From NCBI GenBank assembly GCA_001662655.1, contig KV460238.1: 64,000 nucleotides of DNA. One strand, written 5' to 3'. Positions 33,169-56,201 of the stretch are shown one piece after another. How positions within the stretch are numbered: position 1 is the stretch's first letter; each line of letters begins with the position of its first letter. The notes under the pieces are model-generated. The model did not search any database. It had not been told where the DNA came from and worked only from the letters and a program-made list of their open reading frames with translations. The position numbers and the translations under genes are program-made. This DNA is from Pseudogymnoascus verrucosus. Its lineage: Eukaryota.

Positions 33169-33859
33169 GAGCACGCAAGTGAAAGTAGTGTGATGATGAT
33201 TCTCCTGCACCTAGTAAATGTCCAAGACGGTCGCAGGTAGAGATGCTAAGGGGAGTTAGGCACAAAATGTAAACCGAAAACAAGGTGCGAGTGCGACCAG
33301 AGATTAATTTTTAGTATAACGATGAAGTCACAAATACTGTTAAATTTTCAGACCATAGATGCGGACTATAGAAGCTCGATAACGTCCGTGTGTTAATTGT
33401 TAAGCACCTCGTAGCGAGTATTATCCCCCGCTATATAACCAAAGAGAGAGAGGCCTAGGCTAGTGTTAATCTTGGCCAATGCAACAAAGTGTGCTAGGGA
33501 AACAAACGTGGACGATGAGCCGCCGCGAGTTGGAGTGGCGAAGAACATGGCTTCTGCTGCTTCCATGCCGTAATGGCTAGAATCTCGTCCCACAAGGGAA
33601 TAATAGGAACAACACTCGCTAGCAGGCTAAATCGCCCCGCATCGCCTCCCCTATGGCTGTGTCCACATGGAATACAGTATAGCGACAAAAGGATTTGTAC
33701 AGGTCTGTGCTTAACACACAAAAATGGCTACTACTTTATTAAACGCAAATACGTACATAATTGCAATTATGTATATAGGTATAATAGAATACTAGAATAG
33801 CTTTAATAATATTATATATTTATAATAGCTTAAGGCTCTTATTTAAGTATATAAGTATA

Positions 33860-35922
33860 TGTTCCGGCCCAACCACGAATAAGTGGTATTCGCGAATACG
33901 CTGGCCCATTCGCGAATGGGCCGGCCCAACCACGAATATGTTCCTTCGCGAATAGGCCAACTACAAATAGTAGAAGAGTATAGCAAATTGAATAAATTAA
34001 TAATCTAACCACTATTGCCAATAGTGTCTGCTCTTGCCCGCTTCCGCTTTGGCTTTTCTACTAAAGCTAATTCCGTACGAGTAGCTAGGCCTGATAAGTT
34101 GCCACAGTTATAATCATCATTATAACAGTGAACACTACACTACTTAACCTCCTTATAACAGCAGCACCTCTTTGTACTACACTGCCCTTTGCATTGACAT
34201 GATATTCCTACCCGTACACTTGTAGAAGCCTCTCTAGCTGCAAGCCCTAATCCTACCTGCTTTGTAGAATCAGGAATTTGAATATCAGACCATAGAGCCT
34301 GCTCTACAACACTAAGTGATTTTGTAGGTATAAGGCGTTGTATAATACCAGAGGCTGTTATAACCTGATACCAGTGTAGGTAAGGCTCTTTTAAAATGCG
34401 TGCAAAGAGCCTCTTATTATCAGTTAAGGTTCTATCCTCCCGTAGAACCTTTATAGAGACTATATCCCCTACTTTAAAGTGCTGTATGTCATGCTTCTTA
34501 GTGTACTTGCGTACCATAGAAACCCGTGCTCTTTGAGTAGCTGCTATAGCCTGCTCAATTATAGGGTCAGGTGTAGCTCGAAGCTCAGTCCTAGGCTGAG
34601 CTGGCACCCGAGCCCGGGTCCCACGACGGAGCTCAGAATGAAGCTGCTCTTGCGCTTGCTCAGAATTGAGCGAGGGCACCAGCTCAGAATTGATCGAGGG
34701 CGCTACCTCAGAATTGATCGAGGGTGCCAGCTCAGAATTGAGCGAGAGCAGTAGCTCAGAATTGATCGAGAGCAGTAGCTCAGAATTGATCGAGGGCGCC
34801 AGCTCAGAATTGATTGAGAGCTCTCGCTCTTGCTGAAGCTGTAGGTCAATTTGAGCTTCAGGCTCAAGCTGGCTCTCAAAAATTGGTCCCATATTAGGGT
34901 CCTCCTGCTCAACTCCAATTGAGAGATCCTTCCGGGCCTGGCTATTAAGCCAGTCAATATGAGAGTTCCTGTCTCGGAACAGTAGCTCGGCTGGTGCGCA
35001 CCCAATTGTAGAGTGGATTTGGGTGTTCATTGCAAGCGTGACCTCAAGTAGCCCATCATTCCACTCTGTAGACCCATGGTCCATTTTCTATGCTCGGAGC
35101 TTTGCTTCTACAATTCCATTTGCCTGCTTAACTAGGCCTTGCGTTTGAGGTGACCGTAGTGCTCCATTTACTACTTAAATTCCATACTTTCGTAGTAGGA
35201 TAAGTAGAGCCCCCTTAAATTCCTTCCCATTATCAGCTTACATAATCTTAGGAGGTAAGAAAGCTGCAATAAAGATAGCAAAGCAGTCTGCAATCAGCTT
35301 TGCATGCTTGCTCTTTAATGGATATAGCTGTATATATTTTGAGAAGTGATCCTTTATATGTAGAATCTACTTATATTGTCCTAACGGCTTATGGCGCATA
35401 TCAATTAAGTCAATTTGAACCCTTTCCTATGCTCGGCCTATAGTAATAGGAACTAGAGGAGCTTTTGTAGTAGTAGGTCGATTTAGTGTGCAATTTTTAC
35501 ATCGCTTTACTATAAACTCTGCTTCTTCTCGCTTTAGCCTATAGTATTTCTGTTGTAGAATAGTCTATGTTTTTGTCTAGCCTGTATGTAAGAGCTATAG
35601 ATGTTCATTAACAATAGTGTCAAATGCATCACTCTCTAGAACAACAGATTGTAGGCTCTGGAACTTAGAGTCAGGCTTCCGGTAGAGCTTATTATGTATA
35701 AGCATAAACTCTGTTTGAGCTCTATGCTTTAGTCGTGACTCTACTTGAGTTGTAGGCTTTAGTAGGATCCACTTTAATAGTTAAAGGTTAATGTTATGAT
35801 TCTATCTACAATATCCTATAATACTACCCCGCGTATTAGGCAGCTATTCGTGGTTGGGCCAGCCTATTCGCGAATGGGCCGGCCCATTCGCGAAGGAACA
35901 TATTCGTGGTTGGGCCGGAACA
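33860..35922 (-). mobile_element. Ginger2/TDD-type DNA transposon (integrase-like transposase), RIP-inactivated
   Basis: Imperfect ~78-bp TIRs (33860-33938, 35845-35922) with 22 perfect terminal bp TGTTCCGGCCCAACCACGAATA and TATA on both flanks. Minus-strand HHCC finger, VQIDLID, KDHFSKY, ADNGKEF, SPQTQGLV and a Cys-rich tail, broken by TAG stops. Confidence 0.82.
34657..34824. repeat. 24-bp coding minisatellite (~7 units, SINSELAP/SINSELLL) inside the transposase
   Basis: AGCTCAGAATTGATCGAGGGCGCC and variants in tandem. Confidence 0.9.
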
Positions 35923-37675
35923 TATATAAATCCTTTTGCTACTATACTATATCCCCTTAAGTGTAGTAGGTGTAGTATATAGTATATGTAGTATAGTATA
36001 TAGTATACGTAAATAGTACTCTAACATAGTATACTATACTACCTATACACTAGTATACTGCACTTACAAACATCACCTACTCTACATCTGCTAACCGGGA
36101 TAATTTGAGGGATAGGGGGCGGGCGGACGCAGTGTCTTTCCCTGCTCCGACCCTGCTCCGACACTAGACAAGACACTAGGCAAGCAGTGTTTTCCGTCAT
36201 GTCCGTCCACTTAGCAGGATCCTCATCCTCATCCTCATCCTCATCCGCATCCCCGGCCCGCCTCTCTCGGCCTAGTGGGCCGGCTCACAAACGAGATGTG
36301 CAGGGTCTAAGGATGTGATTGATCGATCAACTTGATGCATCCACTGCACGCGACAGAAGGTACCTCGATGAGGAATGGCGGCGTACTTTGGATGTTGAGG
36401 GCTGTTGGTGTAGTCCCCGCCCGGATGGTGTATGGCTACTGGCCACCATCTACCACTCTACTGAATCCCCTCCCGCTATCCCACATGTGGTAAGACCACG
36501 AGAATGAAACCGTCTGAGGACATGGACATGGCATCGACTGGCATGATGGAGATGGACATCCATCCTAAGTCCGGAATCACTGGATCCGCTGCCCGCCGGG
36601 CCGAACCGTTCTGCGCCAACTCTCTTCCGGGAAGGTCCACTCGCCAGCCTAATAGCTCGATGTTTATCCACTAATCGCTTGATTAACCAATTTATCAGAG
36701 ACCAATCACGCCCTGCCCCTATGCGGTGGATGCATTAGTATGTGTGTGTGCTGCAGTGTGTACTACAGTACGGCGCTAGAAGTATGCGTACAGGTCTGTA
36801 CTTAAATTGCAGTAAACGGGTGTCTTTTTGTATGGGAGAAGCACAGACCTGCACGCATACTTCTGGCGCCCTACTGTATGCAGTGGACTGTAGCCATCCA
36901 CTCACCGCCAAGATCCATCTCTAAGCTCACGGCCATCTCCGCCACGAAACAGACAATGTGGCGACCCTGACGCCGCCATCGACGTTCAGACGAAAGCAGC
37001 GCCGCCACATACACTAATCGCGTCGGGCGGCCCGATCCGACGGTGAAACCTGCGGTGCGGGGGAGGTGTAAAAATAGACATGGACAGGAACGAGATGATG
37101 TATGCGACTTACGTGATCGTTGCGGGGGACAGACCCTACTCCGTACGACTCAAACACACGCCACTCAACACCCGACCCATATAAGCATGACGGGCTCTAG
37201 CACCATGCAAGAAGCCTAACACTACGACCAGCCAGTCTTTTGAGTGCTTCTTCGGCGGCTGTAGCCCACAGCGGTGCCACGCCCCATTCGATTCCCGTCG
37301 GCGCTTTCTTGGCGGCGAGGTTTGCATACAATGGAGCTAGACGCTAAGACTTACGAGAGATCTTGGCTGCAGAGCATCCCAAAGGGATACGGTGACATTT
37401 TGGCTCTCCTCGATTAGTGCTTGGCGTGGGTCGGTTGCCTCACTCCAACGCACTGGTTTTTGGGCCTAAACCCTTCTGCTACTGAGGGTGTTTGCATGCC
37501 CCCTCCAAATAACCTAAATAATACATAGGCTCTGTAGGCATTAATTCAATTGGCCTATATATTCTATATACTGTAGTTACGGCGAGGCCTCCTGACTCCG
37601 TCTGCCGAATAGATACAAGATTCCTATCTCTGCCAGGCTTAAATCTCACGTCTAATCTGGTAACCGAGCGCTAAA

Positions 37676-38050
37676 GTGTCGCTGCTTTTCCCAGATTTCA
37701 GAAAGGAGAAATCGGGAAATTGTAATCTGGCATTAGGGGGCCCAAGTCGAGCGGCATCGATGGATTAATACCACTAAACCACTGATGCCGGATTTCTGTC
37801 AAGCACTTACAGTATTTCGTTTTATGTTAGCGGGCCCGGGCGCTTTAATCACCACATCTTTCGGTTTTCCCAACTTCGCAAAAACAGCCGCCCGTTTCTC
37901 GTTTCCTGGTTCCCTATTTCTGCACTATCCCACAGCATTCTGTTTCTGGTTTCTACATCCTGTACTGTGGGTTTCTGATCCTAGGATTCAGATTTCTATG
38001 CGCACAACACTGTAGACATCATGTTGGCGCATTGCCCCCCAGTTTGGTGT
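37676..38050 (+). repeat. Dispersed non-coding repeat, copy A (3' part)
   Basis: Shares GGCATCGATGGATTAATACCACTAAACCACTGATGCCGGATT and ATGTTAGCGGGCC...CAGCCGCCCGTTTCTCGTT with the other copies. Confidence 0.85.
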
Positions 38051-38247
38051 CCACACACACCTGCTCCTACTGTTCCCTCTTCACTTATCTTCCCTTTCGT
38101 CTTTCCTGTTAAGTTCCCTTGCATCTCACCTCTTAGCTTCCTTTATTTCTAAGAATTCCCTTGATTATTTTGCATTTTTTACACTTTGCTTCTTTACTTG
38201 TGTCTTATTCCCTTAATATCTGAAGTAGAACGCTAGACATAAAGTTC

Positions 38248-40830
38248 TCAAAAAGATGAACTACTAGCAGATGTTAAGCTAGGTGCCGGTATTTTCACCG
38301 AACTTCGCCAAATTACCGCGTAAGAATCAACCTTATAGTCTGGGTCGACGCCGTCTGTGGTGACTAACAGCTTAACCACCGCCCCATGCTTGTATGCTAC
38401 AGCCCACGACAGCGGCGTCATGCCGTCATTGTCCTTGGAGTTGAGATCAATGCCGTTCATTGCAACTAGCAGTTTGACCACCGCCTCGTGCCCCTTAGCT
38501 GCAGCCGCTAACAGAGGCGTCTCACCGTCGTCGTCCTTGGAGTTTGGGTTGACACCGCCTATCAGGAGCAGCAATTTGACCACTCTCTCGTGTCCGTTTG
38601 CTGCTGCCCGCAAAAGCGGCGTCTTACCCTCGTTATCCTTGGAGTTGAGATCAATGCCATCCATTGCAGCTAGCAGTTCGACCACCTCCCCGTGCCCGTT
38701 CGCTGCAGCCAGCAACAGTGGTGTCTGACCGTAGGTGTCTTTCAAATCTAGATGACATCCATTTCGCAGTAAGCCCATCATCGCTTCCCCTAGTCCGAAG
38801 TATGCCGCAACGTGAACCCCTGTGGAGTGCGCTGGCACTCCCTCTCTGTACCAGGAGTTACCTCTTAAAGCTGTCATCGCCTGACTAGAGGCAGCCACCC
38901 GGGTGTCACGCTTGAGAAGTTGAAGAACTAGATACTTCTTCGTTGAAGCTACCCGAGCGTGATGTCCCCAATTTTGCGCGGCATAGTCATAAAGGACATT
39001 CTTCTGTAGTCTTGCCTTAAACTGCTCATCTGTAGAGCAAGAACCAGTAGCGAAAACATCAAATGATAGGTAAGTAACACAGGCAACCATGATATCTGTC
39101 TGTGCATAAGGAAACCAAAAAATCTGGGTCCGTTCAAAATATTCCTGAGTTGTATAATGGACCAAACGGACAGTAGCACTTTCTTTGTCTACAGTGACTA
39201 AACCAGCACACACCGAAATCATATCTTCAATGTCTGGAAGATTTTCTTCATCAAGCTCTAGCTTGCCAATTTCCACAGCAAGAGCGTGCCGAAGCTCTAT
39301 TGTAGTGAGATTTCTCTTAGCGCAGGTGATCCATGACAGAACTTGTTTAGCAAGCTCTCGAGAGTCTGTAATTTGACCTTCGATTCTCTCCATAGCTTCT
39401 TTATACGCATGATCATATGCTTCAGATCCTGTTGAGAGCCTTTCCAACGCAGTTCTAATTGCCTTTGGTGATTTTTTTCCAATTAGTGAAGTCAAGTGCA
39501 GCTGTGCAAGAAGGAACCTAAATGAATATGAGTTAGTTGCTCTACTATAATAGCGTGAGAAGGCACGTACATCCCGTCAACAGCCTTTATAATTTTATTC
39601 TTAATTTCCTCTTGTAGATCAGGACGGCGCATAACAAATGATGGTAGGTATGGCATATGTCCGTCTAGATATCTCTGGACATCTTCATTACTAGCGCGGA
39701 TTTCTAATGATGCACTTCCATTAAACTCTTCAATGATACTAGGGATGAACCGTGAAGTAGCGAAGAGACTTAGTCCAGTATTAGCTTGAAGGTTAAATAT
39801 CTCTGAAATGAATTTCCGGCGACTGCCACTAGAAAGTTGGCACTCGTCTAGCCCGTCAATAATAATGAAGGTTGTAGAATAACTAGCAATAGTGGATTGC
39901 AATACTTTCAAGACTTCGTCAAATGATGGCCGAGTCCGCTTGTTCTTATGGAGCTCATAAAGACTCTTTAGACTGTCCGGCACTGAAGGTTGTTCCTGAA
40001 CTAACTGTTTCAGTAGACTCGCCACTAAGTCTTCGAGCCTTTGGTCTTGCTGCTGTCGGAAGTTGAAATATAGATATGCAATACCAATAGTAGCATCATT
40101 CTGAAACCTACTACTAAGGTGTTCAATAACAACGGATGAGATAATTGTCTTGCCTGCTCCTGGAATGCCTGGACAGAACAAAGTCTGCTCGCGTTTGTTA
40201 ACCCACACCTGGAATTCGTTCGAATTTAATAGCCATTGCCCAGATCCTTCCTGCCGCCGACTAATGAAGTCGCTTTGCTGAGTGGCATAATTGACAGATG
40301 AAAGCCAATCGATGATAACTCGACACTCTTGATCCTGTTGGTGCTGTAACAAGTTGACCAGATTGTCTCTCGTAAGTCGGCCGTTAAAGGCATTTAGTAA
40401 CGTAATGTTTGAGCTAATACGGCTTCGAAGTTCCTTTATGTCCTCTGGCTCCCAATTGAATCTTTTCCAAACTCTTTTCATCCTCTTACCAACCCTCGCA
40501 GGATCTGAATTTAGTTCACCATACTTGTCTAGCAACTTTTCCAGATCGCTAAGAACATTGCGGCTACCCTTAGCAATATTATGCAACTCTATCTTCTGTT
40601 GGCTGCTAAGCTTCTGTTCTGGTAGGACGACCTCCACATCTTGGAGAACAATCGACAAGCTTCTAACTCTATTAAACCAAAATATTAGCATCTGTTAATT
40701 TATCGTCCTGGACAACTCACTCATTAGAAATGCCCTTTAATTGGCTTGGAGCAGTAGCAAATTCCTTGCGAATTTTGTTGGCAAGCTCAATCGCCGTGAT
40801 AAAATCGCCTACACTGAAACCAAAGCTCAT
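38248..40830 (-). CDS. Fungal NLR: HeLo-like N-terminus + NACHT + winged helix + ankyrin repeats; exons 40830-40721, 40668-39571, 39517-38248
   Basis: [10 protein letters not shown] start, Walker A GIPGAGKT, Walker [20 protein letters not shown] across an intron, [12 protein letters not shown], about five ankyrin units (GxTPLLxAAxxGH). Confidence 0.9.
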
Positions 40831-41369
40831 TGTGACCTTAAAACCAGTGCCCTTACCATGGTGTAAAAAGGAAGGCTTGACAGCGAAGAGAAACCTGTCA
40901 ATATATTTGTCACTTAAAGCCTTAGTGGGGCAATTGTGGCGGCAGCTGACTATCGTGCATAAGTGCCTAACATGGGTATAGAAGACTTGCAAGGCTCTCA
41001 TGCCTCCAGTAGGGTAGATAGTAGAAAGCGGCTCAAAAAGAGTCTAACAGAGATCGTCACGGTTGCACACGTAAAAAGACCTGTTTGAGAACACTATTGT
41101 TTAGCTCACATAGATGGATCGGGCTATCGGTGAGGCAGATTCAGAGATTAGCAAACCATTTCCTGTTTTTAAACGCATACAAACAAGTTCCGATGTACAG
41201 AATATATATTTTCATGCAGGTTGCCAAGGCAGATTTCAGGAATCAGCCAACCATTTTGCGTTTGACGCGCTCACATACACTACACCCCCGTATGCTAAGC
41301 CGGAGTTGGCATTAGTCGTAAGCACAGACGACGAGGGATGATAAAAGCACTCGAGAAGTCAGAAAACAG

Positions 41370-42146
41370 TTAGGACACAGCAAGCCTTCATCAACTCGGA
41401 AACTCAGAAACTCAAAACTGTCAACACTGAAACCCAAAGCCTTGAAACTAGAACACTCAAAGCCTAAAGACTAAAAACCTAAATTGTTAAAAAAAAAATC
41501 TTGCTCTAATTTTGAGGTAGCGTGCTGATAAAGATATTACCATCACGAACCTAGGGTGATGGTTGCGAGTTGCTATTATGCTGCATCCATAATATACAAG
41601 GATAGATGCCTTTGGGCGGGTAGTAAAGCGCGGACATTGGCTATGCACCTGCAACTTATAGCAGGGGCCGGACGCTCCGAACCAATTATTTGGCTTGAAT
41701 CACGCATTCCCATGCCACATCCAACTCATTTCCAGGCAACCAAGTGCCAACATGTCGCTGCTTTTCCCAGGCTTCCGAAAGGAGAAATCAGGAAATGGTA
41801 AACCGGCATTAGGGGGCCCAAAGTCCAGCGGCATCGATGGATTAATACCACTAAACCACTGATGCCGGATTCCTGATAAAAAATTATCATATTCCGTTCC
41901 ATGTTAGCGGGCCCGGCTGCTTTTACCACTACCCTTTTCGGTTTTCGCGACTACGCAAAAGCAGCCGCCCGTTTCTCGTTTTCTCGTTCCCTATTTCTGC
42001 ACCATCTAACACAACATTCCGTTTCTGGTTTCTAGACCCTAGAATGTTGGGCGTCCCTAGTAGGTTTCCGATTCTAGGATTTAGCTTTCTGTGCGCACAA
42101 TACTATAGACATTATGTTAGCGCGTAGCCTACTCCCGATTTAGTGT
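41370..42146 (+). repeat. Dispersed non-coding repeat, copy B (longest)
   Basis: Aligns with copy C from ATCAACTCGGAAACT onward and with copy A through the 3' end. Confidence 0.85.
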
Positions 42147-42147
42147 C

Positions 42148-43254
42148 TAGTACCACCTTGCCAACTAGTATACTAAGTGTAACCTCCAAGCTGTCTAGTA
42201 CATTACAACCAGTGAAAATGGTTGGACTACTAATGTAGTAGGCCTAGATTGGATGAAGCACTTCAAATACCACATAGCGTCCTAGACAAAGGGCAAATAC
42301 TAGTTGTTGATCCTCGACGGCCACGAAAGCCACCACTCGACCGAATTCGAGCTCTAGTGCTAGCAGAACAACATCATCACGCTCTGCATGCCTCTGCATT
42401 CTTTGCACTACCTCCAGCCATTTGATGTCGGCTGCTTTAGGCCGCTAAAGCAGGCATACGGTCGCTAGATTAAGGACTTGATGCGCATGCATATCAACCA
42501 CGTGAGTAAGCTTGAGTTCCTTTGTGCCTTTCGTGAGGCCTTCTTCGCCTCTATAACGGAGAAAAACATACAGGGTAGCTTTGCAGGTGCTGGCCTTGTG
42601 CCGTACGATCCAGAGAGGGTGCTTTCTAAGCTAGATGTGAAGCTTCGTACGCTAACACCCCTAAACTCGTGGGCTGGCACTCCACAGCCCTAGGTCTTCC
42701 AGACACCACACAACCCCCGAGAAGCTAATTCGCAGTCAACGCTCATTAAGACTCGCATTGCCAATCATCAAAATAGCTCCCCAACTTCAATGTTAGCCGC
42801 TATAGACCAGCTTGCTAAGGGTACAACAGCTATGATGCACCAGGTGGCTCTCCTTCGTGCAGAGAACGCTTCACTCCGCAAGGCTAACGAGGCCCTAAGC
42901 AAGCGCCAGAGAGCCAAGAAAACACGTGTGCAGCTCGGAGGGTCACTTAGTGTACAAGATGCGCAAGATCTAGTAGACCAGAATGTAGTAGGTAGGGAGG
43001 GAGCGCAAGAAATGCAGCCGGATGGTAGTGGTGCAGGGGGGCTTCGTGCGAAGGTTCGGTGCTGTGGTGTGTGCGGCAAGCCTGGTCATAATGCACGTAC
43101 TTGTCAAAAGGCTATAGATTCATCTGATTTAGCTGTTTCTAATGTAATTATAGTTGGTTCCTAGTGTTGATGTATTGCAATTAAGGACAGCTTGTCATAG
43201 TGTGGTGGGAAGTGCGGCGCTCGCTGATATGCGGCGCTCGCTGATAAGATACGT
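42148..43254 (+). mobile_element. Fot1/pogo (Tc1-mariner) transposon, 3' fragment with right terminus, RIP-mutated
   Basis: DDE_1 motifs SENGWTTN, LILDGHESH, HYLQPFDVGCFRPLK; zinc knuckle CGVCGKPGHNARTC; in-frame TAG stops; end with TGCGGCGCTCGCTGATA x2 then ACGT|TA. Confidence 0.88.
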
Positions 43255-43602
43255 TATATTATTCTATTTACTGTATCCTACTGTTAAAGCTTCTGTTTCA
43301 CTGCCAAAGTCCTCCCACCAACACTAATATAGCAAATGTAAGATTTAAATTTCGACATTGAAAGAGTAGTTCGATTGTGAAGACGCATATATCTATCGAA
43401 ATAAGAGCCTCTCTTTGAAGTTATGTGTCACCATTGATGGCCGATTTGGCGACCTTGATCGACGCGTCCTGCGGCCCGTGCACCAAAACAACAGGCATCC
43501 GGGGGATTCTTCAGTTATCCTTCAGAAACCCCGACTTCTCCAACTCGAATATCTCTCCTCCCATCTCCATTAAATTCTGGAACCACTTGAAAATTCTTCA
43601 AA

Positions 43603-45462
43603 ATGCCGCCTAAAAGAAAAGCTCCCCTCGCAACAGCAGACGCCAACACGCTCGACACTCCAGCTCTAAAGAAAGCAACCAAAGGCAAAAGGACGACTAA
43701 TGGTGCCCCATCTGCACCGGCTGCCCAGAATAAATACAAATATTCGGGCCCTGGTAGTGTATATAAACCGTATTCCATCAAAGGATTCATACTGACGTTT
43801 CTCGTAGATGGTTAATCAAGGACCTGTCGATATTACGTTCGTCATGTGGCCAGGGATTAAAGGCACCGAGGAAGAAGAAGTCGAGGATGACAAGGATGAC
43901 GAGGAAGACGACAAACCCGAATCTGGATCTCTGCAGGAAACTCTAGATGGGATCGAGAACGAGAGGAGAAAGGCAGTCAATGAAGCCATCAATGCTCGAA
44001 TGAACAATAATACCGTGTCAAGCTCGGAGATACGCAACATACGAGACGAGAAGTCGAAACCCTTCGAAAAGAAGGCGGAGCAGGCTAGAAAGAAGTTTCT
44101 GAAGGCGAAAACCATGACAGCAGAGGAGGCAAGGGCAACAGTGGGGGTGGATGATGCAACCCGCAATGAGAAAACAAAGGCTAAGAAGAATTGTCAGGAG
44201 AGGCTGAATGAGATCTGCAGGGAGAGGAACATGGCCGTTCATAACGCTCTTAATTCCGATAAGAAGAGCTACATATCAGTTAGGGAGGGACAAGCCAGAA
44301 TTGCGAAGGCGGAGAAGCGATTTTTGAAGAAAATGGACGAATGCAGGGGTGCTGTTGCGAAGTATACCCCTTTGACAATGGAGGAGGCAAAGGAGATTGT
44401 GCCTAATGTCGAGGTGGATGATGAGGGTAACGAAATCACCAAGAAAAGTGCGGCACAGGCCAAAAAGGATGCCAGGACAAAGACCTTTGTACCTCCCAGA
44501 GTCGTCACTGATGAGGGCCTCCCAGTTAGCAGGGCTGGAATGGAGAAGTTCATTGAGATCAATCAGGAGATAGATAAGCGCAACCAGGATGTCCACGGCT
44601 TGTATATATACAATGATTTCTCTGGATACGGTGTTACGGAAGTGATGGAGAATTTGGTATGCCAAAGTGCCTTTATCTGGCTGATAATCTCCCGGGGCGC
44701 ACATTGTTGTAAGAAAGTTGACATTTTGCTAATATACATTAATAGCTGGCGGAGTTCAACAAGTCGATCTTCAAGAAAGACATTTCCCCACTTAAGAAAT
44801 GGGCAATTGTCGAGGGCCTCACCCTCTACCTTACAATGGGCGACCTCAGGGTATGGATGAGTACGTTTAGTACCCTTCTAACAATGTTCCCCTTCCCTAG
44901 CCCCATTACTCTTTCCCCAACCACCTAACACGCAGCTAGTGAACGATGATTCCGAAGGCATAGAGGAAGTTTTCAATATGATGGGCGTCATGTTTGTTAC
45001 AGCTCTAGAAATGCTTCACGAATCCGCACTCATCGGCCCCACATCACCGTTGCCAGACAACGTCGGCGTCCTGAGCTTATTATTTCTCAACTTCGTGATG
45101 ATTGGGTGCACTGATTATGATCTCGAGTGGGCGCATGAAGTTGTGAGAGCGGCTGATGAGTACGGTGTGGTTCTTACTCCGATGAAGCAGGTTGAGGATG
45201 TGACCCAGGATAGGCTGGACGAGTTGAGAGATATATGCGAGAAAACCAAGAAGGGGAAGGGGCTTTTTTGGAAGACTGAGGTAAGGTAAGATACCGCGTG
45301 AGAGAAATGTATGCTAATCTTATTGTGCGATAGTACCCTAAGTTTAAGAGGGATCATCCAGGTGGTCGTAAATATGATATTACCAAGATGTCCACGGCCC
45401 AGAAGGCTCAGTATGAGTTTGGCAACGTGAGTGAAGATTCGGAAGTCGAAGACTTGGACTAA
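43603..45462 (+). CDS. Hypothetical protein; exons 43603-43758, 43808-44656, 44746-44860, 44940-45280, 45334-45462
   Basis: Four canonical introns give one continuous frame. NLS-like MPPKRKA, charged helical middle, KRNQDVHGLYIYNDFSGYG and GGRKYDITKMS motifs. Confidence 0.75.
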
Positions 45463-45855
45463 TAAACGGGGGTTCCCACTCTTCCCGCCCTACAGGCGGT
45501 AATCGGCGAAAGCGGATTGTAGCGCGCAAGCGGTTCGTAGCTCTAGTAACATCAAAATACATATTTTAAAGAGAAGGATGTCATTAGGGAATGCTTTCTA
45601 AAGAGCGTTCCCTGCCCGTACTACTGCCATAAGTTAAGTTAAGTTCAGTTTATTTGTAAACTTCTCGCTATATGCTACAAGCTATCCTAATTGTTCAGAG
45701 TGTTGGCCGTAGATTCCGAGCTTAAAAACTCCTGAGTCGCAACTGATCGAGCCTGAGATTTCCAGCATTGCTGCCTTCTCCTCCGACGCCTTCTCGTCCA
45801 CCCCATCCCGAGCTGCCCCTCTATCTTCCTTCGCCTTCCATCCCTATTCTTTGCT

Positions 45856-46210
45856 GTGGTTGAGGTCGTCGCACAGCTCGGGTACGATGTTATCTTTATC
45901 GACCAGGAGCACTCGCCCATGGACATCGGCGAGATGACGCGCATGGCGCTTGATATCCAGTTGATCAGTGAGGGAAGGACTATTGCTAAGATGGCTAAGA
46001 ACATCCCCCCCCCTCCCAATTCCCTGCCCCACGGCGCGGTGCTAATGACGACAGAATTTGCGACCATGACCACGCCACTATCGGGTACGCCCTCGACACC
46101 GATGCTAGCATCATGGTTTCGCAGGTTGAGACAGCCGAGGATGCAAAGCACGTCGTTTCAGCCGCCAAATTCGGGATGAAGATCAAAGGCACCCGCTCCG
46201 CGCCGCCTGA
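45856..46210 (+). pseudogene. HpcH/HpaI aldolase family fragment
   Basis: AQLGYDVIFIDQEHSP, then in another frame IGYALD..SIMVSQVETAEDAKHVVSAAKFG...GTRSAPP; truncated at both ends. Confidence 0.7.
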
Positions 46211-47287
46211 CCAACCCTGGATGGTTCTATGTCTATTGGCCTCGTCATCCGTTACAGCTGCGATCCACGCCTTTTCTACGACAAGACGAGCTTCGTGTGG
46301 CTATGGCGATAGCCCCTTTCCGCCGCCTAGAACAGCAAGGGGACAAGTCGATGGTTGCCCCTTTTCTCTCCTTTTCTTTTCGGCCACCTGTCTTGCCACC
46401 GAAGCTCGACGCTTCTGCATGGAGTGCCGGAGCTAGGATTTTCCGTTCGAAGTTGGTGAAGAGGGCCAGAACTTTGTCGTAGTCGATGATGTTCGAGAAA
46501 CCTGCCCTTACGCCACGCGCATGACATTTCACGGTACACACGTGACAAGGCTTGAGAATAGTGGCTGAGTATTAGCAGGCACTAAATCCTGAAGCTAAAA
46601 CATGTGGCGTTTTGTGCCCCCCTCTCCTCCCATGGCGTAACTCCCCGACGGCTTTATTCTCCTCTCTGAGTGACTTCAAAACTTGGAGCCATATTATTTC
46701 TTCATGGAACCTTTCCCTACGTGCTCTGAAATTTAAAGAGACTGTAATTATCGCAATTGAGCAGGGGGAACAGCCGAAGCAGCAATCAGTGGCGTAATTG
46801 AAACAATCGACAGTATGATCAGCTACAGTCTATTTCTTGCTGCTAACTGGTCTCCTTATGGAGCAATGGTTAAGAATAATGATATATTAATAATAACTTC
46901 GTAGACATGCCAAGAATTTTTTCGAGACTCCTAAAGCATAGATTCGTCCCGTGACAGGGTGCGTCCCTGGACCAAGAGATAGACGTTACCTATCATTTTT
47001 TTCGGCACGGTGGTTTTTTCGTTACTTAGGGGCAGACGTTACAGATTTTGAGATGCTTGAAGTCAAAGTACCCATCGTTTTTCTCGGCACAGTTGGTTTC
47101 TCGCTACGTATGGACGGACGTTAACACATGATTGTAGCGGTATAATCAGGCCTTCCACCATTTCGAGCTACTCGCCTCAACAAAAATTGTATTCCATTAC
47201 TGGGATTTTTCGCTATGCAGGAAAAAGAAACTTACCGCCTAGATATACTACTATATATACGCTTGAAACGGCATCAACTATGAGGCT

Positions 47288-49418
47288 CTAATCGGGTCTA
47301 GAACCGGATTCCAATCTCGTATACGCATCCGTAAGCAACTCTAGCGACATAAGTCGATTAGGATCGCCTTCTCCAAATACGTTCTCCTCCACAGCCACTA
47401 CATGTTCAAGTAGCTGGATTGCTTCTTTCACAATTTCACCGTCTAGGTATGCGCTTGCGAGTTCGTGCTCTGACGCCAATCGAGAGTGGTCCTCGTCCGC
47501 TAGCGTCCTCTTTCGTACCGCCACGACGTGCTCGAAGATCTCAATCGCCTCCTTAATCCGTCTGTCATCTAGGTATGCCTTTGCAAGTTCGTGCTCTGAC
47601 GCTAATCGAGAGTGGTTATCTTCAGTAAAATGGTCCCTCCTCTAGTCTCTCGCTGCTTCGAAACATCTTATTGCTTCTTTAAATCGTCTATCCAGACCCA
47701 AGCACAACCCCACTGTCATAAACAGATCGTACCTCTCCGCTATTTGACACCAGCTACTTCTATTTAGTGCCTGGAGTCCGTGTGGTACGTACCCTCTCCA
47801 TTTTTCGTGCCTCGTCCGACCACTGGGGGGAAATGCATTCTCAATATGGCGTATCGCATCTATTGTCGTCTGTTCTATAAGGCCTTCGCTTTCCAGCCAT
47901 ACCCGCGTCGCCACATGCACGAGACTGTGCATATCAAACATCTCCTCATCTCCTCATCTCCTCGTTCCGACAGGAAAGCATATCCCCGGAGAGTCCCAAT
48001 CGCATACTCCATAACTTCCTCTGGCCCCACTTCCGGCAGAATCGACCGCGGGATCGCCTTCGGTTCGATACAGGACACAAGGCCTAATATGGACGCTGCA
48101 GCCTTGTCAGATCTTTGGATCTGAGCAAATGACACAAGCCATGTCGTCGCTACCGCGTTTTGGGAACCTTCGTACCGCGTCCTGTCGTGGAACTCTCGGC
48201 TCACCTTGCTCTGTTCCGTTCCCCGTAACAGTCCCAGGTATTTTCGAAGGGAGATTTGGTTCTGGTTAAGATATGCCACCGCCTGAGCAATAGCTAGTGG
48301 AAGATACGTAAGTTCCCGAAGGAGCTCTACAGTTGTTGCTTTATCCTGAAGCAGTTCCTTCCGAGCCAACGATATCTCCATGAAGACCGTTGCCTCTTCT
48401 TGGCTCATCTCTCGCAGATCAATAAGATGGCTCCCGGCCACTGCCACAGCCACTTCTCTCGATCGTGTCGTAAATACCACTCGGCCACTCTCGCTCTCGG
48501 GAAGATACCGATATATGCCGCGCTTCTCATTCGATCCCATCACCACCTCCATATCATCCGCGTTGTCTACGATGAGAAGCCACTTTCCAGCTTTCTCCGA
48601 ATGGAGGTGACGGCGAACCAGATCCTTGACGTCTTCGTCCTCTTTGCTTTTATTTACGCCAAGCTCCTGAGCCAATTCTGCGTACGCCTTCTCAAAACTC
48701 GCTTCACTAAGTGATGCTACCCAGAAGATCGAATATCCTTGTTTGTTCGCCTTAACCAAATACGCAAACTGCAATGCCACCTGAGTCTTTCCAATACTGC
48801 CCAGACCAACGAGTGCCACCGCTTCGCACTTTTGACTGAATAGCTTCTTCTCGAGTGTCTCGAGTATAGTGGCTCGTCCGACAAACCGCCTATTCTTTAC
48901 GAATGGCAAACAGTAACTTGGTTTGTAGATTGGATCTAACGTATTAGATAGTAAGAGTGGATAAGGAATCATATCCTAGTTGGACCCACTACTATCGGCT
49001 CCGTTTATTCCTACCGCGAGAGCTTCTCTGCTCGCTGGCATAACCCGACCTTCCCCACTCGTTAAATCTAGAGTGTACTCTGATCTCATCAGGTTCTACG
49101 CACCTGTCGTTGATCTGGTCTCGCCATCCCACCTCATCAGGTCTCCAACTAGCCGCTTAAAGCCATTGTCGTTCTCCGTCCTGAACTTAACCATATCGCT
49201 GTGGTTGGCGTGCACACTGACCGACGTGTAGCCTTCGAGTGTAGCCGACTCCTTGGAAACGATTTGCCCAACCACCGGTAATGGCAGCTCTTCGAAGAAA
49301 CATAGATCTCCAGCCGTCTGCCGCTCTCCCGTTGCCCTCTAACCATCGACCAGAATCTGACATTGATCGACTCAAGTAGCTGGTTGTTCGTCGACTTCAA
49401 GACTCCAAGTGACCTCAA
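47288..49418 (-). pseudogene. Decayed NLR: SesB-like alpha/beta-hydrolase remnant + NB-ARC + TPR
   Basis: FEELPLPVVGQIVSKESA...HANHSDMVKF hydrolase end; P-loop GLGSIGKT, WLLIVDNADD, FTTR, LPLAI; 8-bp duplication frameshift at ~47945; TAG at 47642; two 42-aa TPR units (HSRLASEHELA); 5' end missing. Confidence 0.82.
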
Positions 49419-50174
49419 AAATCATCAGAGCCGCTTCTGGGTGTTCTTTTACGTGTTTGATAATAGTGGCGATCGCATTAGCGTACGTATATTCTCCCCG
49501 TCTAACTTCCTCAGCGTAGGCAGAACGGAAAAATTCGCAACTTCCTATGTTGCGGACGCCTTGGAAAGCCTCCATTCGGCAAACAGTCAAAAGGGTTCTT
49601 CGGTCTGTAATTTTGGATATAACTCGGAAAAGTATTTCGGGAGGTGATTGGGGCAAATCAACAGCGCCACCAAGGTGTGAGGGAAGGCGTTGCTTCTTTC
49701 CCGGCAATTCGGTTGCCTCGTCATCCCCAATCTGTATAGGTTTCCTATGCACTCTTAGCACGGCTCAGTACGCAAATGTTGATATTCTTAACTCGAGACA
49801 AGGCCGATCGTCGCCTTCAGTATCTGATACCAGGATATATTGCATGTTGCTGTCACACTTAGTCCTTCCTTTAAGATAGTCCAACGGGTTTTGCCGGGAG
49901 TGTATAATCTCAGCTGCCTGTTCTGGAAGGGCAACGTAGATTGTTGTAGAATCGCGGTAAAAAATTGATGAAGTTGTTCAAAGAACTTGGGGTGAGACCA
50001 TGCTTAGTCGATGGATGGCACGACAGTATTCAGGGAACCAGTCAACCGTTTTCGCGCTTCTTAGGTTGCTGTTGGTTGCGAGGTTCCAGTGTCAGGCCAG
50101 GGGTTACGTGAGCTCTGGGCCTCGGGGCAGGTTTCCGAACGAGAAGAGGCAGTACAGGTAAAAGCACCGAAGCC

Positions 50175-50410
50175 ACCCAACCATCTCCCGTTTCCATGAA
50201 GCCGCCGCCGTGATCGAAGATACAGGATGCGGCCGTTCGAGAGGCCCGAGGCAGATATCACAATCGACCAACCATTCCCCGTTTTCATGAAGCCGCCGCC
50301 GTGATGCGGCCTTTGGAAAGGCCCGAGGCAGGTTGGGAAATCGACCAACCATTCCCCGTTTCCGCTGTCGTCATCGCAGACATTGGATGTGGCCTTTCGA
50401 GAGGTTACAG
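50175..50410. repeat. About 2.5-3 tandem units of ~80-90 bp with GGCC hairpins
   Basis: CCAACCATTCCCCGTTT and variants three times, CATGAAGCCGCCGCCGTGAT twice, GGCCTTTGGAAAGGCC inverted repeat and variants. Confidence 0.75.
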
Positions 50411-50474
50411 AATTGGCCAAGATCACGAGTTGCCATATTAATTCTAAGTGTCGGTCAAGCCAAGAATCCAAGCT

Positions 50475-51150
50475 TGGGACACGACAAGGGTCTATCAACT
50501 CGGAAACTAAAAACCGTTAACGCTGAAACCCAAAACCTTGAAATCAAAAAATAACTTGCTCCAATTTTGAGGTAGCGGGCTGACAGAGATGTTACCATCA
50601 CGAACCTGGGGGTGACAGTTGCGAGTTGCAATTATACTGCATCCACAATATACAAGGATGGATGCCTTTGGCCACAATATACGAGGATGGATGCCTTTGG
50701 GCGGGTAGTAAAGCGCGCACATTGGCTATGCACCTTCAAGCTGCGGTTACGGAGCTGAATGCTCTGAACCAGTTACTAGTCTTGAATCACGCGTACCCAT
50801 GTCGACTACAACTTTTTTCTAGGCAACCGAGCGTCAAAATGTCGCCGCTTTTCCCAGACTTCAGAGAGGAGAAATCAGGAAATGGTAAATCGGCATTAGG
50901 GGGCCCAAAGTCGAGCGGCATCGATGGATTTTACCACTAAACCACTGATGCTAGATTCCTGTTGACCAATTACTGTATTTCGTTCTATGTTAGCGGGCCC
51001 GGCTGCTTTTACCACCACAACATCTTTCAGTTCTCGCGACCACACAAAAGCAGCCGCCCGTTTCTCGTTTTCCCATTCCCTACTTCTGATCATCCAACAC
51101 AACATTCCGTTTCTAGCTTCTACATCCTGGACTGTTATGCGTCCCCAGTG
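50475..51150 (+). repeat. Dispersed non-coding repeat, copy C (internal 29-bp tandem duplication 50643-50700)
   Basis: Colinear with copy B; CCACAATATAC(A/G)AGGATGGATGCCTTTGG occurs twice. Confidence 0.85.
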
Positions 51151-51609
51151 TACTACGGCAGTGATTTTAAAGGGGCATCTGCGCTACGCACACACATGAA
51201 GAGAGTAAAGTATGCTCGAAGAAAGCTAAGCGTACACCACGAGACACAGGGAAAATACAGCTCTACTACTCCTGCCTGGACCTTTATCCCAATTCACGAT
51301 TGGTTTCTGAAATAATCCGCCTAGTAGCAAATTTGGTAGGACATCTGAATCTACGGATCAACGTCCAGAAGTCAAGGGACGTCGTCCTTGCTAGCCTAGG
51401 CCAGGAGTCTACATTCATAGATGTACGCTACATATCTGCACCAAATTGGATCCCGGATTGCATACCCCTAAGATGTCTGCTGCTTACCAGCTACTATAGC
51501 TATAAATAGCTGCACCCCCATACATAGATGCTTTGAATATTATCACGGTTGCATTCTCTGTTCAGAGCTTTAACTCACTGGGACAGCCTTTGAATGAATC
51601 TAGTCCAGT

Positions 51610-51986
51610 CCATATTCTGTTTCTTGTTTTTCAGCAGTACAATCGTACTGTCCAATCTTTAGTACAAATGACAAGAAACTGTAGACGGAAGCTGCAGCAG
51701 TAATAGTACAAATGACAAGAAACTATAGACGGAAGCTATAGCAGTAGTAGTACAAATGAACAAGAACCTGTGGACGGAAGCTACAGCAGTAAGTAGTAGT
51801 ACAAATGAACAAGAAACTGGAAATGGAGCCCGAGCTAGAAACGTACTACTACGAGCTGTGCTAGTACAAATGACAAGAAACTGAAAACCAAATGGTACGA
51901 TCTAGAAACGTACTACCCGCCTAAAGAGTGGAACTGCAATTGCACCACTGCGATTGCAGTGCCGGAAAACAAGAAACAGGATATGG
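51610..51986. mobile_element. MITE/foldback-like element with an internal direct-repeat array
   Basis: Imperfect inverted ends CCATATTCTGTTTCTTGTTTTTCAGCA / TGCCGGAAAACAAGAAACAGGATATGG enclose five AGTACAAATG(A)ACAAGAA repeats. No TSD seen. Confidence 0.55.
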
Positions 51987-52771
51987 CAGCACATCCGCCT
52001 AATCACAGTGAATAATTATAGACAATAGTAAATAGTGAACAGAACTAAACACACCGTTCGCCATCATAACTCCTAGCTGCGCTGCCCACCTGACATTGCT
52101 TGTTGCATTCTCCGTTGTAGAATCCAATTAACTCCGATACTACCTGTCCGAGTCTTCTGAATTCGCATGCCGTGTCCTGAATATTTTGATTTGTCCTGCC
52201 GTACTCATTCATATCATTATCGAGGCATTCACACGTGAACAGAGGGGTCTTTCAGCTGTTTTATAAAATACTAATGATCACAATCAAACAGTATAGTCCA
52301 CTACTCGATTCAACTAAGATAATCTACGCAGCCTTGTTCGATCAATTGACAGATCAGGCGTAGAAGAGCATGTTTGCTATCTCTCCTGATCCTCTGAAAT
52401 CATTTTCAAACTCCTTACCAACCTTGAGGACGGTCTCTAAATGAGAATAGCATAGATGTGTTCCATAGCTGCTTGCTATAGCATGTGCTGAACGCACTCC
52501 ATTCTTAATCTGTGCGGCAGTGTTAGCAAAAGAACTCTATCCGATGGTACCTAGGAACACTTGCCTGTCTACCGTTGAGGCTATGCTTGGCTAGGACGTT
52601 TAACTGCTTGTCGGCTTTCGGAGTAATTTCGACTTGATGTCAATATAGACCACTGGTATTTTGGTTTTCTTGACTGTATTCTTCCGTTAGCAGGTACTAT
52701 TTGTGCGGAGGAGATACTAACTAATACGCCTGCGCTCTATGAAAACGTAATGGAAAGCACTCTACATGAGC

Positions 52772-52960
52772 TGGCATCGATGGATTAATACCACTAAACC
52801 ACTGATGCCGGATTGCTGTAGCCCAATTTTTGTATTCCGTTCTATGTTAGCGGGCCTAGCTGCTTTTACTACTGCGTTTTCGATTTTCGCGACTTCGCAA
52901 AAGCAGCTGGCCGTTTCTCGTTCCCCCATTCCCAATTCCTGCAGCATTCCGCTTCTGGTT
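52772..52960 (+). repeat. Dispersed non-coding repeat, copy D (core only)
   Basis: GGCATCGATGGATTAATACCACTAAACCACTGATGCCGGATT through CATTCCGCTTCTGGTT. Confidence 0.85.
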
Positions 52961-53294
52961 CAGAATTACGTGCTAGTTTAAGCTAACATGGCCGGGATGC
53001 CCAAGTGTTGTCATATAAAAGCAGCATTGGCCCTTGAACCACTCGGGCGATTTAGAATTTGGATATCAAGTTTCCATCAATAAAAACCTCGAAGTCGTCT
53101 GATTCAGCGACCATCTCCGGAAGATATGCCCAATTCTCTCGGGTTTGTTTATATTCGTATGTAATAGGTAAATCTTGTATTATAGTATTACTGGTACTAG
53201 TACTACGCATAACAGTGATAAATAAAAAAGAATCCACAGCAGCAATATCACATAACCAAGCCACATGATGGTACCCTGACATATAGAGCCTACG

Positions 53295-55630
53295 CTATTC
53301 AGTACCGGGGACAAAACCTGCTGCTATGCAGAAAGAGGCAGAAGCTTTCACCTCATTCTTGTTAATGGGCGAGCGTGCCTCGAATCTCAGGGACCGTCCT
53401 TCGATTATAAGCCACAGGTCATACTGGACTTCGTAAAACGAATGCAATTTTCCTTCTGCATTTCGCACTGTGGTTGGCTTGATTCGACCTGTTGTCTTAA
53501 GGAAAGTAAGATTGACGAGAATTCTGCCGGCCTCTTCGGCACCTTGTGGCAGGATCGGGTTAGTGTTTGTCCATTAATGGGAGTTTCACCAAAATGCTAC
53601 TTACCTTTGTTCTCTTTATGACCGTACTTATATCCGGACTTATGGGCTCCTGAAGAAACATAAAGAATTTCTTCACATAAGAAATCCTCGTGCATTTGAA
53701 ATATGTGCCTAGATTTAAATGATTTTTCATATTTGGTTCCCACAGGAGTGTCCTGATCACTGGATGTTAGACCAAGAGAAACACTTCCCACCATTAGAAT
53801 ATGGCTACTTACCTTACTGAGAACCCACTGAATGGTGTTCATGATGTATAATTCCCCGTCAGCCCGATCGCGAGAAACCCAGAGTTTCCTATGCTGCGGG
53901 TTATTTTCATCGTATAGTAACGTCCGGAGGACTCCGTAGCTCGATCTAGTAATCCTAGCAGGTCCGAATTCCTTCCTCAACGCGCGTAGAACGGCTCCGC
54001 GGGCGACGGCTGACTGGACGTAGCGCGATGGCTCGAAATCAATCTCCTGATTCAGTAGGTTTCGCTGTTTTCTCAAGATTTTCTTGAGATGATTCCTCAG
54101 CGATGGCGATTCCCCGAAGCCCCCGGTTAAGATGACCGTTTGGACGTTGACTCCGTTCGTTTTAGCTTGGTTAAGTTGTTCTAGCATCAAATCTTTTGTG
54201 CCATCGAGGCAGTCTTTGAAGACCTTATACATCTCCTTCCAGCTGAGATCTAGTTTATTCCTCCTAATCCTGAGTTCCCTATCTTGTTCTGCTTGAAGGC
54301 CCGGAATATGGATAGCGTCAATATGGGCTTTCTTGTCTAGTATATTAATGCTTCTCTTCTCATTTTCGAACCTCTGGACCTCGGCGGCGATAATTCTCTC
54401 TAGAGACATGTCATTTCCAATGATATTAGCATGTTCAAGCCGTTCCTCTAATAGCTTCTTGTAGTTTTTATTCAGAAAGCTTGATCCACATGAGACCCCC
54501 TTTGGGTTAACTACTTCTTGCATCCGGGTTGGAGTCGAGCGAATTAGTGTGTAGGTGATTGCATCAACTGTGCCGCCCCCACAGTCCAAGAGCAAGAATG
54601 ACTCGTTGGTTATTATATTGGATAGGGACTCGCAATCTTCCAGAGCAAATGTTGCCGCGGCCTCTGATTCGGCAACGATGAATAAGTCCCTTATCATACC
54701 CTGCTCGAGTTTTGCAAGCTGGGATGTCTTGATGGCTGTAGTCAAAGCACTTTGCATAATACGGCAAGCCTTGTCCGTCCAGGAGGTTGGCACGCATAAG
54801 ACGAATTCCACCTGGCTATCCTGTTGAAGGCCATGAAATGTGCCTAGTCTTTTTTTGGTATGTTTGAACAGCTGTCCAAGATATTCAGCAATGATGTCTT
54901 CTGCCTTCGCGTTCTTCAATCTTCTTAGTTCCTGGGCGCTTTTCTTGCGGAGGTCTTTTGTACTTGTCGCATCGTCTAATTGCAGCTTGAAGTTTGTCAA
55001 GTGTCTTAGCTCCAGGGGTATGTTTTCAGGTTTGACTAGTCGAGAATGAACACCCCATCCCCAGATCGAGTTTTTGGCTTCGTATTTAGCGGCTCTAGCA
55101 GATACCACGTCTCTTTCACCATCCTGATTAGAATCTCCATCTACTGAAGACGCCCAGTCATCATCATAAGAGCATTGCGATTCGTTATCCGATGAGTCTA
55201 AATTGGATGGGTCTTCAGGCCAGACTTGGTCTTTCTGTGCATAGCACATAAGCTCCGTGGGAACAGACTGATGGCTTGTAAGAACATCCGCAGATATACC
55301 CGATGGCATGTCGGGAAAGTTATCGATACACCGAACAGATTCGGCTTCAATCGTCTTAATGTCCCTGTGAAGATCTAGGCGTACAAACGCCACGGACGAG
55401 AATGTAGTCCCAAAATCGACAGCGATAATAAATTTTGAAGGCCACGTCTCTTTGAAACCCTTCTCGATGCTTTGATGGGGTTCAAGTTGGCAGCCCTGGG
55501 CCATCACATCATCCCCGTAAGGCCGGTCTACCCCGACGAGGGGTGGTGCGATATCAGGCATTTCAACGTCCTCAGATTGTTCTTCTGAAGGCACCCTCTC
55601 GAATTCAGCTTCAGCGTACTCGTCGGCCAT
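53295..55630 (-). CDS. Atypical Hsp70 (HSPA12-like actin-fold ATPase); exons 55630-53813, 53752-53605, 53542-53295
   Basis: IAVDFGTTFS, AESEAAA, LLDCGGGTVD, ILTGGFGESP, SAVARGAV. Divergent C-terminus ending IAAGFVPGTE, with no EEVD. Confidence 0.88.
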
Positions 55631-56201
55631 GATAAAGATTCTACACCTTAGAGTGCCTGATTTACAGAGAGGAGATTTTACGCAAACGGCGTATACTACT
55701 CGGATGCTTCGTCTACATAGTGCTGCCTGATCGACGCCTTGCTCCGCTCGCTGTTATTCTGTGACTATCTGCGTCAAGGCTGAGTGCATGCTTTTAAGCA
55801 GGCTGAGACAAATCCGGGAACTGAGCCGGACTTCCGCAACGGCTGCCTACAGTTCAAGCCAATCAAATTATGAGATCGACAAGGGGTCTACAACATAAGG
55901 CACTGATTGATTTCAAATAGACCCATGTCAACTTTGATATGGCTGTGGTTTACTGTTTTGTGTAGCAGGGGTGGTTTGGGGGCTGTTGGTTCAGGGTAGC
56001 TGGCTCGTGCCTTACAAAGCTGCGCCACACCATTTCTCGCAGCTGGCATGTCCGTCCAACACCACAGTCAATTCAGGCTACTCCTGGGACAGCTCGCTGC
56101 TCCGCCAGTCTGAGTAAAGGAGATTGCGACAAGAGGTTGGTGGTGTCGCCATATCATTGAGTAAATTGCTAAATCTTGTCAGTTGACATGACACTATCTT
56201 T

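Follow-up and report, generated by a model that had tools for sequence, protein, structure and literature searches.

A 64-kb stretch of contig KV460238.1 from the Pseudogymnoascus verrucosus assembly GCA_001662655.1, here called the window, contains a repeat that lies among genes for NOD-like receptors (NLRs). The left 28 kb of the window is occupied by ordinary housekeeping genes, and the repeat is found between ~29 kb and 61.5 kb, in a block of lower GC content that looks accessory. An initial annotation, made from the sequence alone, had described four co-oriented copies of this repeat and had proposed that they are recombination sites, or termini of an unclassified gene-capturing element. 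The four copies (A to D) are real: searches with self-BLAST, sensitive BLAST and nhmmer agree on four plus-strand copies and reveal no fifth in the 64-kb window (the next-ranked nhmmer match has E=0.21). The chance that four copies share one orientation is 1 in 8. A 19-mer from the repeat core occurs 4 times in the window, against 0.02 expected. The copies, together with a module in the left arm, are as follows.

37659..38062, plus strand, copy A: left arm (70 bp), tRNA-Gly remnant and right arm
41370..42158, plus strand, copy B: the most complete copy, and the only one near full length
50474..51149, plus strand, copy C
52768..52961, plus strand, copy D: tRNA 5' half and right arm, without a left arm
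50144..50404, plus strand, internally duplicated dispersed module, the outer part of the left arm, with a weak counterpart left of B

The repeat unit thus consists of a left arm (up to ~750 bp in B and C), a tRNA-Gly remnant and a right arm. Copy A had been correctly recognized but begins at 37659, not at 37676, and its right arm reaches ~38133, as judged from other genomic copies; the similarity between B and C, which had also been placed too far right, fades leftward to ~41060 and ~50150, respectively, and is weak there. The copy ends are ragged and differ from copy to copy, with no common end motif and no shared sharp ends among the four; neither a shared tail nor a target duplication was seen at the copies. 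Pairwise identity among the four is 78-84%. As had been noted, the copies differ by transitions, transversions and indels alike (46/24/4 transitions/transversions/gaps for A-B, 71/29/8 for B-C, 33/17/4 for A-C, 15/12/1 for B-D), and dinucleotide indices give no signature of repeat-induced point mutation in any of the four. A coding origin was rejected: six-frame translations are broken by stops and frame breaks in all copies, with no significant Pfam match. A 10/12 direct repeat flanking the core was likewise set aside, since a match of this kind is expected by chance. The earlier description of the repeat as non-coding stands, but it had overlooked what lies on the minus strand of the core. 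There, each copy carries a remnant of a tRNA-Gly(GCC) gene, without T arm or B box.

37729..37788, minus strand, tRNA-Gly(GCC) remnant of A: nucleotide (nt) 1 at 37788; T arm absent; dyad 37752-37790, 13/16 pairs, 7-nt centre
41805..41865, minus strand, tRNA-Gly remnant of B: dyad 41829-41867, 13/16
50892..50951, minus strand, tRNA-Gly remnant of C: dyad weaker, 10/16
52772-52808, minus strand, tRNA 5' half of D: dyad 12/16

As a reference set, a pattern scan of metagenome contigs provided 44 tRNA-Gly loci. ARAGORN predicts a tRNA at the matched position in every one of them, calling 43 Gly and miscalling one intron-bearing gene as Thr. In 4/4 copies, tRNA nt 1-20 match the fungal tRNA-Gly gene, and the changes specific to the repeat family appear only from nt 21 on. 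Copy C is host-like through nt 30 and equals the intact gene at 34 of the first 35 nt. Similarity to tRNA-Gly extends to ~nt 48 and is followed in A, B and C by an altered 3' acceptor strand; in D it ends just past the anticodon. The remnants lack the cloverleaf with T arm that marks a functional tRNA gene. ARAGORN finds no tRNA gene in the window, the Rfam tRNA score of the C remnant is 12.7 bits (below the cut-off of 29), and a B box is absent both from the remnant and from the 300-360 nt downstream of it in every copy. The anticodon stem is broken, with 2-3 of 6 pairs against 6/6 in intact genes; an acceptor-like pairing is kept at 6 of 7 positions. A reading of the core as a primer-binding site was rejected, because the similarity carries on into the tRNA 3' half. 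Elsewhere, the 19-mer occurs at four loci in prokaryote genomes, two of them with tRNA-Gly(CCC) and none with the repeat arms, and a repeat-specific pattern has no match in metagenome contigs, in viral contigs or in plasmids.

The remnant is conserved in excess of the arms around it. In the four-copy alignment, 34/36 columns of the tRNA 5' half are invariant, compared with 93/163 in the right arm (Fisher p=6e-6), and the best right-arm window of the same size attains 28/36. When A, B and C are aligned, 57/61 columns of the whole remnant are invariant against 183/255 in the arms (p=2e-4). One conserved base, at nt 31, is not that of the host gene, and yet it is kept in all four copies, inside an invariant run of 14 nt. 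The conserved 5' block also forms an imperfect inverted repeat about the D loop, with a 6-7-nt centre (13/16 pairs in A and B, 12/16 in D, 10/16 in C). Counted over 14-nt arms, the copies have 11, 11, 11 and 10 pairs, compared with 9 in 5/5 arm-less intact genes tested; a value of 11/14 is reached at 29 of 63,950 window positions, and six of these are in the copies themselves. The core forms a short hairpin, with folding z-scores that are uneven among copies and near zero in C. Since the changes common to A, B and D increase the dyad symmetry while the anticodon stem is broken, the pattern favours a site in DNA over a mimic of tRNA.

The same arm is joined to an intact gene elsewhere. In metagenome contig L041, the right arm stands directly upstream of a complete tRNA-Gly gene, and it is 77-84% identical to the arm of the four copies. 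Among the 44 tRNA-Gly loci the arm is present in this one alone (score 200, compared with at most 33). The downstream flank of L041 is not the left arm; rather, it matches that of an arm-less locus, L046, with a score of 79, the next best being 38 among the 42 loci compared. The upstream flanks of these two loci are unrelated (score 18). Judged from these alignments, L041 and L046 look like one type of locus in its filled and its empty state, the exchange lying at the tRNA 5' end or within it.

Several further features of these contigs were recorded. Inside the arm of L041, positions 684-774 are an inverted duplicate of the intact tRNA-Gly gene together with 15 nt of the arm and 5 nt from downstream; it reproduces the junction with one base difference, and could have arisen by template switching or as an artefact. 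Three 10-mers common to L041 beyond the arm and to the left arm of C align locally no better than shuffled sequences (p 0.16-0.3). In L046, a decayed tRNA-Gly 5' half at 601-648, 126 bp upstream of the intact gene, does not have the changes of the repeat family and is probably a local tandem duplicate. Contig L012 carries, at 34-484 and 908-978, the end of an ankyrin-repeat gene ~370 bp upstream of an intact tRNA-Gly gene, in the same direction; this is also the order in which the NLR gene precedes copy A, but no arm is present (p=0.07, within background).

Contigs of runs X1, X2, X4 and X5 (4 of 20 runs) were also compared with the window, and the statements that follow refer to the matches listed. 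In each of X2, X4 and X5 there is a contig with a loose end, before 50917, that consists of 3' sequence of the same tRNA. In X1, from which the window may derive, several contigs with variant letters lie on the repeat and represent further copies, and depth there is no measure of copy number. X1 matches of equal depth (212.9) comprise a left-arm piece (41717-41865) whose end coincides exactly with tRNA nt 1, and another copy on the same strand; read as one contig, they hint at the opposite junction and at a second co-oriented cluster.

The following genes and elements lie between or beside the copies.

38248..40830, minus strand, NACHT-ankyrin NLR gene between A and B: Pfam-supported, frames open, introns inferred
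42151..43254, plus strand, DNA transposon, 3' fragment: present as a repeat in each of the four runs, no Pfam match
43604..45464 (approximate limits), plus strand, hypothetical gene: without a significant family in Pfam or NCBIfam or a usable match in the Atlas
45750..46433, plus strand, HpaI-type aldolase fragment, frameshifted: weak match to TIGR02311, E 5e-4
47288..49421, minus strand, NB-ARC-TPR gene, broken by a frameshift and a stop: Pfam
51610..51986, no strand assigned, MITE-like (miniature inverted-repeat transposable) element between C and D: 41-nt inverted ends, internal 44-nt repeats
53295..55630, minus strand, Hsp70-like gene: best match 96% identical, labelled Pseudogymnoascus sp.

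The arrangement described in the initial annotation is borne out in most respects: A and B bracket the NACHT-ankyrin gene, whose homologues have weak N-terminal SesA/PigL_N matches; B and C bracket the hypothetical gene, the aldolase piece (present, though weak) and the broken NB-ARC-TPR gene; and D ends 334 bp from the stop of the Hsp70-like gene. The transposon fragment, which we take to be of the pogo/Fot1 type from its C-terminal CCHC motif and ACGT-TA end, does join the 3' end of B, as claimed. However, the junction at 42151-42158 cuts both partners, in that the arm is longer elsewhere and another pogo copy continues left of 42151. In sequence, it looks like a deletion joint rather than a clean element end.

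The further claim that the repeat builds and shuffles an immune-gene array finds no support here: there are two NLR genes, one of them broken, and no contig spans a missing cassette. Blocks at 98-99.6% identity occur in runs labelled as other organisms (38594-41856 and 53818-55899 in X5, 43210-46568 in X4), which is compatible with close kinship or with recent exchange. The first contains the NLR gene and the left arm of B to 41856 at ~98%, and the Hsp70-like gene is 99.6% identical in X5. Depth is zero at 47288-49279 and 53264-55900 in X4 and at 43304-45295 in X5; no contig joins across these intervals, so they are not evidence of cassette loss.

A linked Rep/helicase or tyrosine recombinase, which had been named as something to look for, was not found among the ORFs scanned. 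The Pfam scan covered a set of 22 open reading frames (ORFs), 129 of 194 ORFs of at least 62 aa right of 28.5 kb, and 107 of 108 ORFs of at least 95 aa to the left. The ORFs omitted on the right overlap genes already identified or are in the 22-ORF set, and the 108th left ORF was covered in the right-hand scan. Among the ORFs scanned there is no match to a recombinase, to DUF3435, to a Rep/helicase, to DUF3723, FRE or PLP, or to a transposase tied to the repeat, and two NLRs are present.

We tentatively favour the interpretation that the repeats are decayed attachment sites of an element that recombined into the 5' part of tRNA-Gly genes, restored the gene, and became stacked in tandem. The proposal of recombination sites is partly supported, by the conserved tRNA-derived dyad and by the junction of arm and intact tRNA. 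In this model, the repeat would represent the joined ends of the element, an attP-like site made of left arm, tRNA-derived core and right arm, and the family would target tRNA-Gly(GCC) genes. The element would bring an exact version of tRNA nt 1-20, including the A box, and the putative crossover would occur in or near the D loop of the host gene. One junction would then have the right arm, an intact tRNA and host downstream DNA, i.e., the gene would survive; the other would have host upstream DNA, the remnant and the left arm. As the promoter for RNA polymerase III (Pol III) is internal, a foreign upstream flank is harmless to a tRNA gene. With the intact gene rebuilt, a further element could insert at the same place, and co-oriented arm-core-arm junctions would remain between successive cargo blocks, here the NACHT-ankyrin gene, the hypothetical gene with the aldolase piece and the NB-ARC-TPR gene, and the MITE. 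The present array would be old and eroded, and the presumed enzyme would be a tyrosine recombinase that acts in trans, for which a Starship captain is the most plausible candidate.

A number of observations weigh against this interpretation. The left and right arms have diverged alike (84% and 83% for B-C, 81% and 80% for A-B), as expected from plain duplication of one unit. In a clean tandem array, an intact tRNA would be expected at the left end and a remnant without arm at the right end; instead, the window has no tRNA gene, A is two-armed, and D is without a left arm. The intact-gene junction comes from L041, one metagenome contig of 1.6 kb that has adapter ends and carries an inverted tRNA duplicate. 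The limits of the block 43210-46568, found at ~99% in X4, are the pogo end on one side and ~46.6 kb on the other, neither of them a repeat copy. The model does not call for conservation in the 3' part of the remnant, which is observed as well (23/25 columns against 183/255 in A, B and C; p=0.03). The dyad was tested post hoc, and 9/14 pairs are present in the host gene itself; the length of the dyad centre differs between A, B and D and the host gene, and the dyad of C is the weakest. Finally, no enzyme was recognized among the ORFs scanned.

In the main rival reading, which we consider somewhat unlikely, the repeat would be passive. Here a tRNA-Gly locus with its flanks would have been captured in accessory DNA, e.g., that of a Starship, would have lost its T arm, and would have been copied with neighbouring non-coding modules by duplication and ectopic recombination; gene conversion from host tRNA genes would have kept the 5' half exact, and L041 would be either ancestral or the product of an ectopic crossover. 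The equal divergence of the arms, the ragged ends, the host-like sequence of C through nt 30 and the lack of a nearby enzyme are all consistent with this, as are other small modules within the same 20 kb that are found joined in different orders in X1. Conversion, however, should have erased the non-host base at nt 31, which 4/4 copies retain, and an ancestral L041 should have the left arm downstream, where its flank matches instead the ordinary locus L046. The arm tree of the five sequences is unresolved. An improbable alternative invokes two elements, namely a short interspersed nuclear element (SINE)-like unit with a tRNA-Gly head and the left arm as its body, and a separate right-arm element that inserts exactly at tRNA-Gly 5' ends, real or pseudo. 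It accommodates the intact A box of the head, L041 (arm without body) and the X1 piece that ends at nt 1 (body without arm). Yet it would require a second insertion in 4/4 window copies and a head lacking any B box in the remnant or the 300-360 nt beyond it, and the similarity of B and C continues past the first T run, with no shared tail or target duplication. In tRNA-derived SINEs, the tRNA head is at the 5' end and carries A and B boxes inside a dispersed repeat, and each copy has an A-rich or repeat tail and a target duplication. The present repeat is alike in that an A-box-bearing tRNA segment is dispersed, but here the tRNA segment lies inside the unit, preceded by 270-350 bp of shared sequence, the B box is lost, the ends are ragged with shared flanks, and there is no tail.

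That the core is kept as a cis element or small RNA, such as an A-box/TFIIIC site or a hairpin RNA with a role in chromatin or expression and none in recombination, seems to us quite improbable. Conservation of the entire 60-nt remnant and the remaining acceptor-like pairing would be expected of such an element, whereas the broken anticodon stem, the missing B box and the uneven folding z-scores would not, and L041 is left unexplained. Helitron-type termini, also suggested initially, are the least credible candidate: a short hairpin-forming core with captured gene fragments nearby is reminiscent of them, but the hairpin is internal and tRNA-derived, no end motif is common to the copies, and neither a Rep/helicase match among the ORFs scanned nor shared sharp ends were found.

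The repeat may also be compared with known systems. Bacterial integron cassette arrays consist of co-oriented imperfect inverted repeats between gene blocks. The repeats described here are similarly co-oriented, imperfect inverted repeats that separate gene blocks, but there is no integrase, the blocks are multi-gene with introns and mixed orientation, and the sites lie within long shared arms. On the features tested, the repeat lacks what would assign it to Starships, SINEs, Dada elements or Helitrons. Dada elements, as described in the accessible part of PMC3706591, are DDE transposons that split tRNA genes with a 6-7-bp duplication; they include a tRNA-Gly family in Perkinsus, and tandem copies are known. 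They share with the repeat a sequence-specific link to tRNA genes, including tRNA-Gly, and the tandem copies; in those sections, however, the 5' half at Dada insertions keeps host upstream DNA, and here the same upstream arm is found in 4/4 copies.

Among fungal elements, Starships are the likeliest relatives. Available sections of the literature indicate that they move as circles by a tyrosine recombinase (10.64898/2026.09.21.753150), that they often carry NLRs, including NACHT-ankyrin (PMC9156397), and that those targeting 5S ribosomal DNA (Voyager, Enterprise, Arwing, Osiris) interrupt the 5S gene and produce direct repeats of 6-16 bp (PMC11162782, PMC9156397, 10.1101/2024.06.28.601215). 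Starship insertion sites were screened with tRNAscan, and 5S and AT-rich sites were reported, in the part of PMC11162782 available. So far as these sections go, the 5S Starships resemble the present case in their occurrence in Pezizomycotina, an accessory region with NACHT-ankyrin NLR cargo, and a multicopy Pol III gene as target. They differ in that here a tRNA gene is concerned, 20-36 nt of which ride with the repeat, and the blocks are of 2-9 kb. No DUF3435 captain is present as a first gene among the window ORFs scanned.

The closest working likeness, by our analysis, would be the pTN3-type integration of archaea: according to the accessible part of PMC8371274, pTN3-like integrases use the 5' half of tRNA genes as their site, and the gene is restored. 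In that part, pTN3-like and other prokaryotic tRNA-targeting elements share with the repeat the targeted 5' part, the intact gene at one junction and, more tentatively, a dyad with a 6-7-nt centre, and tandem integration at one locus is known (PMC8371274). Elements of this type that use a tyrosine recombinase have a dyad core with an overlap of 6-8 nt, to which the dyad described here, with 10-13 of 16 pairs, may correspond. The differences are that the present host is a eukaryote, with an internal Pol III promoter, that the dyad is centred on the D loop, and that no integrase gene was found. We found no published fungal element that targets and restores a tRNA gene, in a search to which subscription journals and supplements (including Starship target tables, which may hold a tRNA case) were external. 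No tRNA-targeting element appears in the accessible parts of 10.1101/2025.11.25.690456, PMC13004909 and PMC4438637, nor by term count in that of 10.64898/2026.01.28.702382. Reported Starship targets are 5S ribosomal DNA, in which the gene is broken, and AT-rich DNA.

If the attachment-site interpretation is correct, it would define a 39-bp candidate site and a known target, making the recombinase findable by linkage, and it would explain mechanistically how cargo turns over and how NLRs become stacked in accessory regions. It might also offer a route for the small fragments common to distant Pseudogymnoascus lineages; the accessible part of PMC4438637 describes exchange of such fragments between otherwise distant lineages, and the tie to this repeat is speculative. 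A broader extension, which we regard as distinctly doubtful, is that of a eukaryotic integron-like system, in which a trans-acting tyrosine recombinase would use the tRNA-Gly-derived dyad sites, restoring the tRNA, to stack, excise and exchange recombinase-free cassettes, including NLRs, between Pseudogymnoascus lineages.

Other features of the window were noted in passing. Small dispersed non-coding modules lie at 46944-47123, 53005-53139, 49439-49794 and 37448-37617, and in run contigs some of them are joined to the module at 50144-50404, or to the repeat, in other orders. A second tRNA-like piece, at 53037-53046, has no Rfam tRNA match. A hairpin with 40-nt arms at 36764-36878 is repeated in all four runs and has a related half copy at 33653-33724. 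Positions 33856-35926 hold a 2.07-kb element with long inverted ends, presumably Ginger-like, whose decayed integrase-like ORF (34140-35087, minus strand) has no Pfam match, ends in a cysteine-rich motif and contains a 24-nt tandem repeat. Near the left edge of the accessory block, 30075-30395 is the start of a Copia-type gag (DUF4219, E 1e-4). The gene at 58479-61120 has features of a PD-(D/E)XK nuclease (Atlas 0.97; PF20516 in 11% and 82% of the members of the first and third clusters, respectively). Outside the window, contig L005, from a giant-virus bin, carries at 401-563 adjacent genes for tRNA-Gly and an intron-bearing tRNA-Glu, and nt 1-24 of this tRNA-Gly are the same as in the fungal gene.

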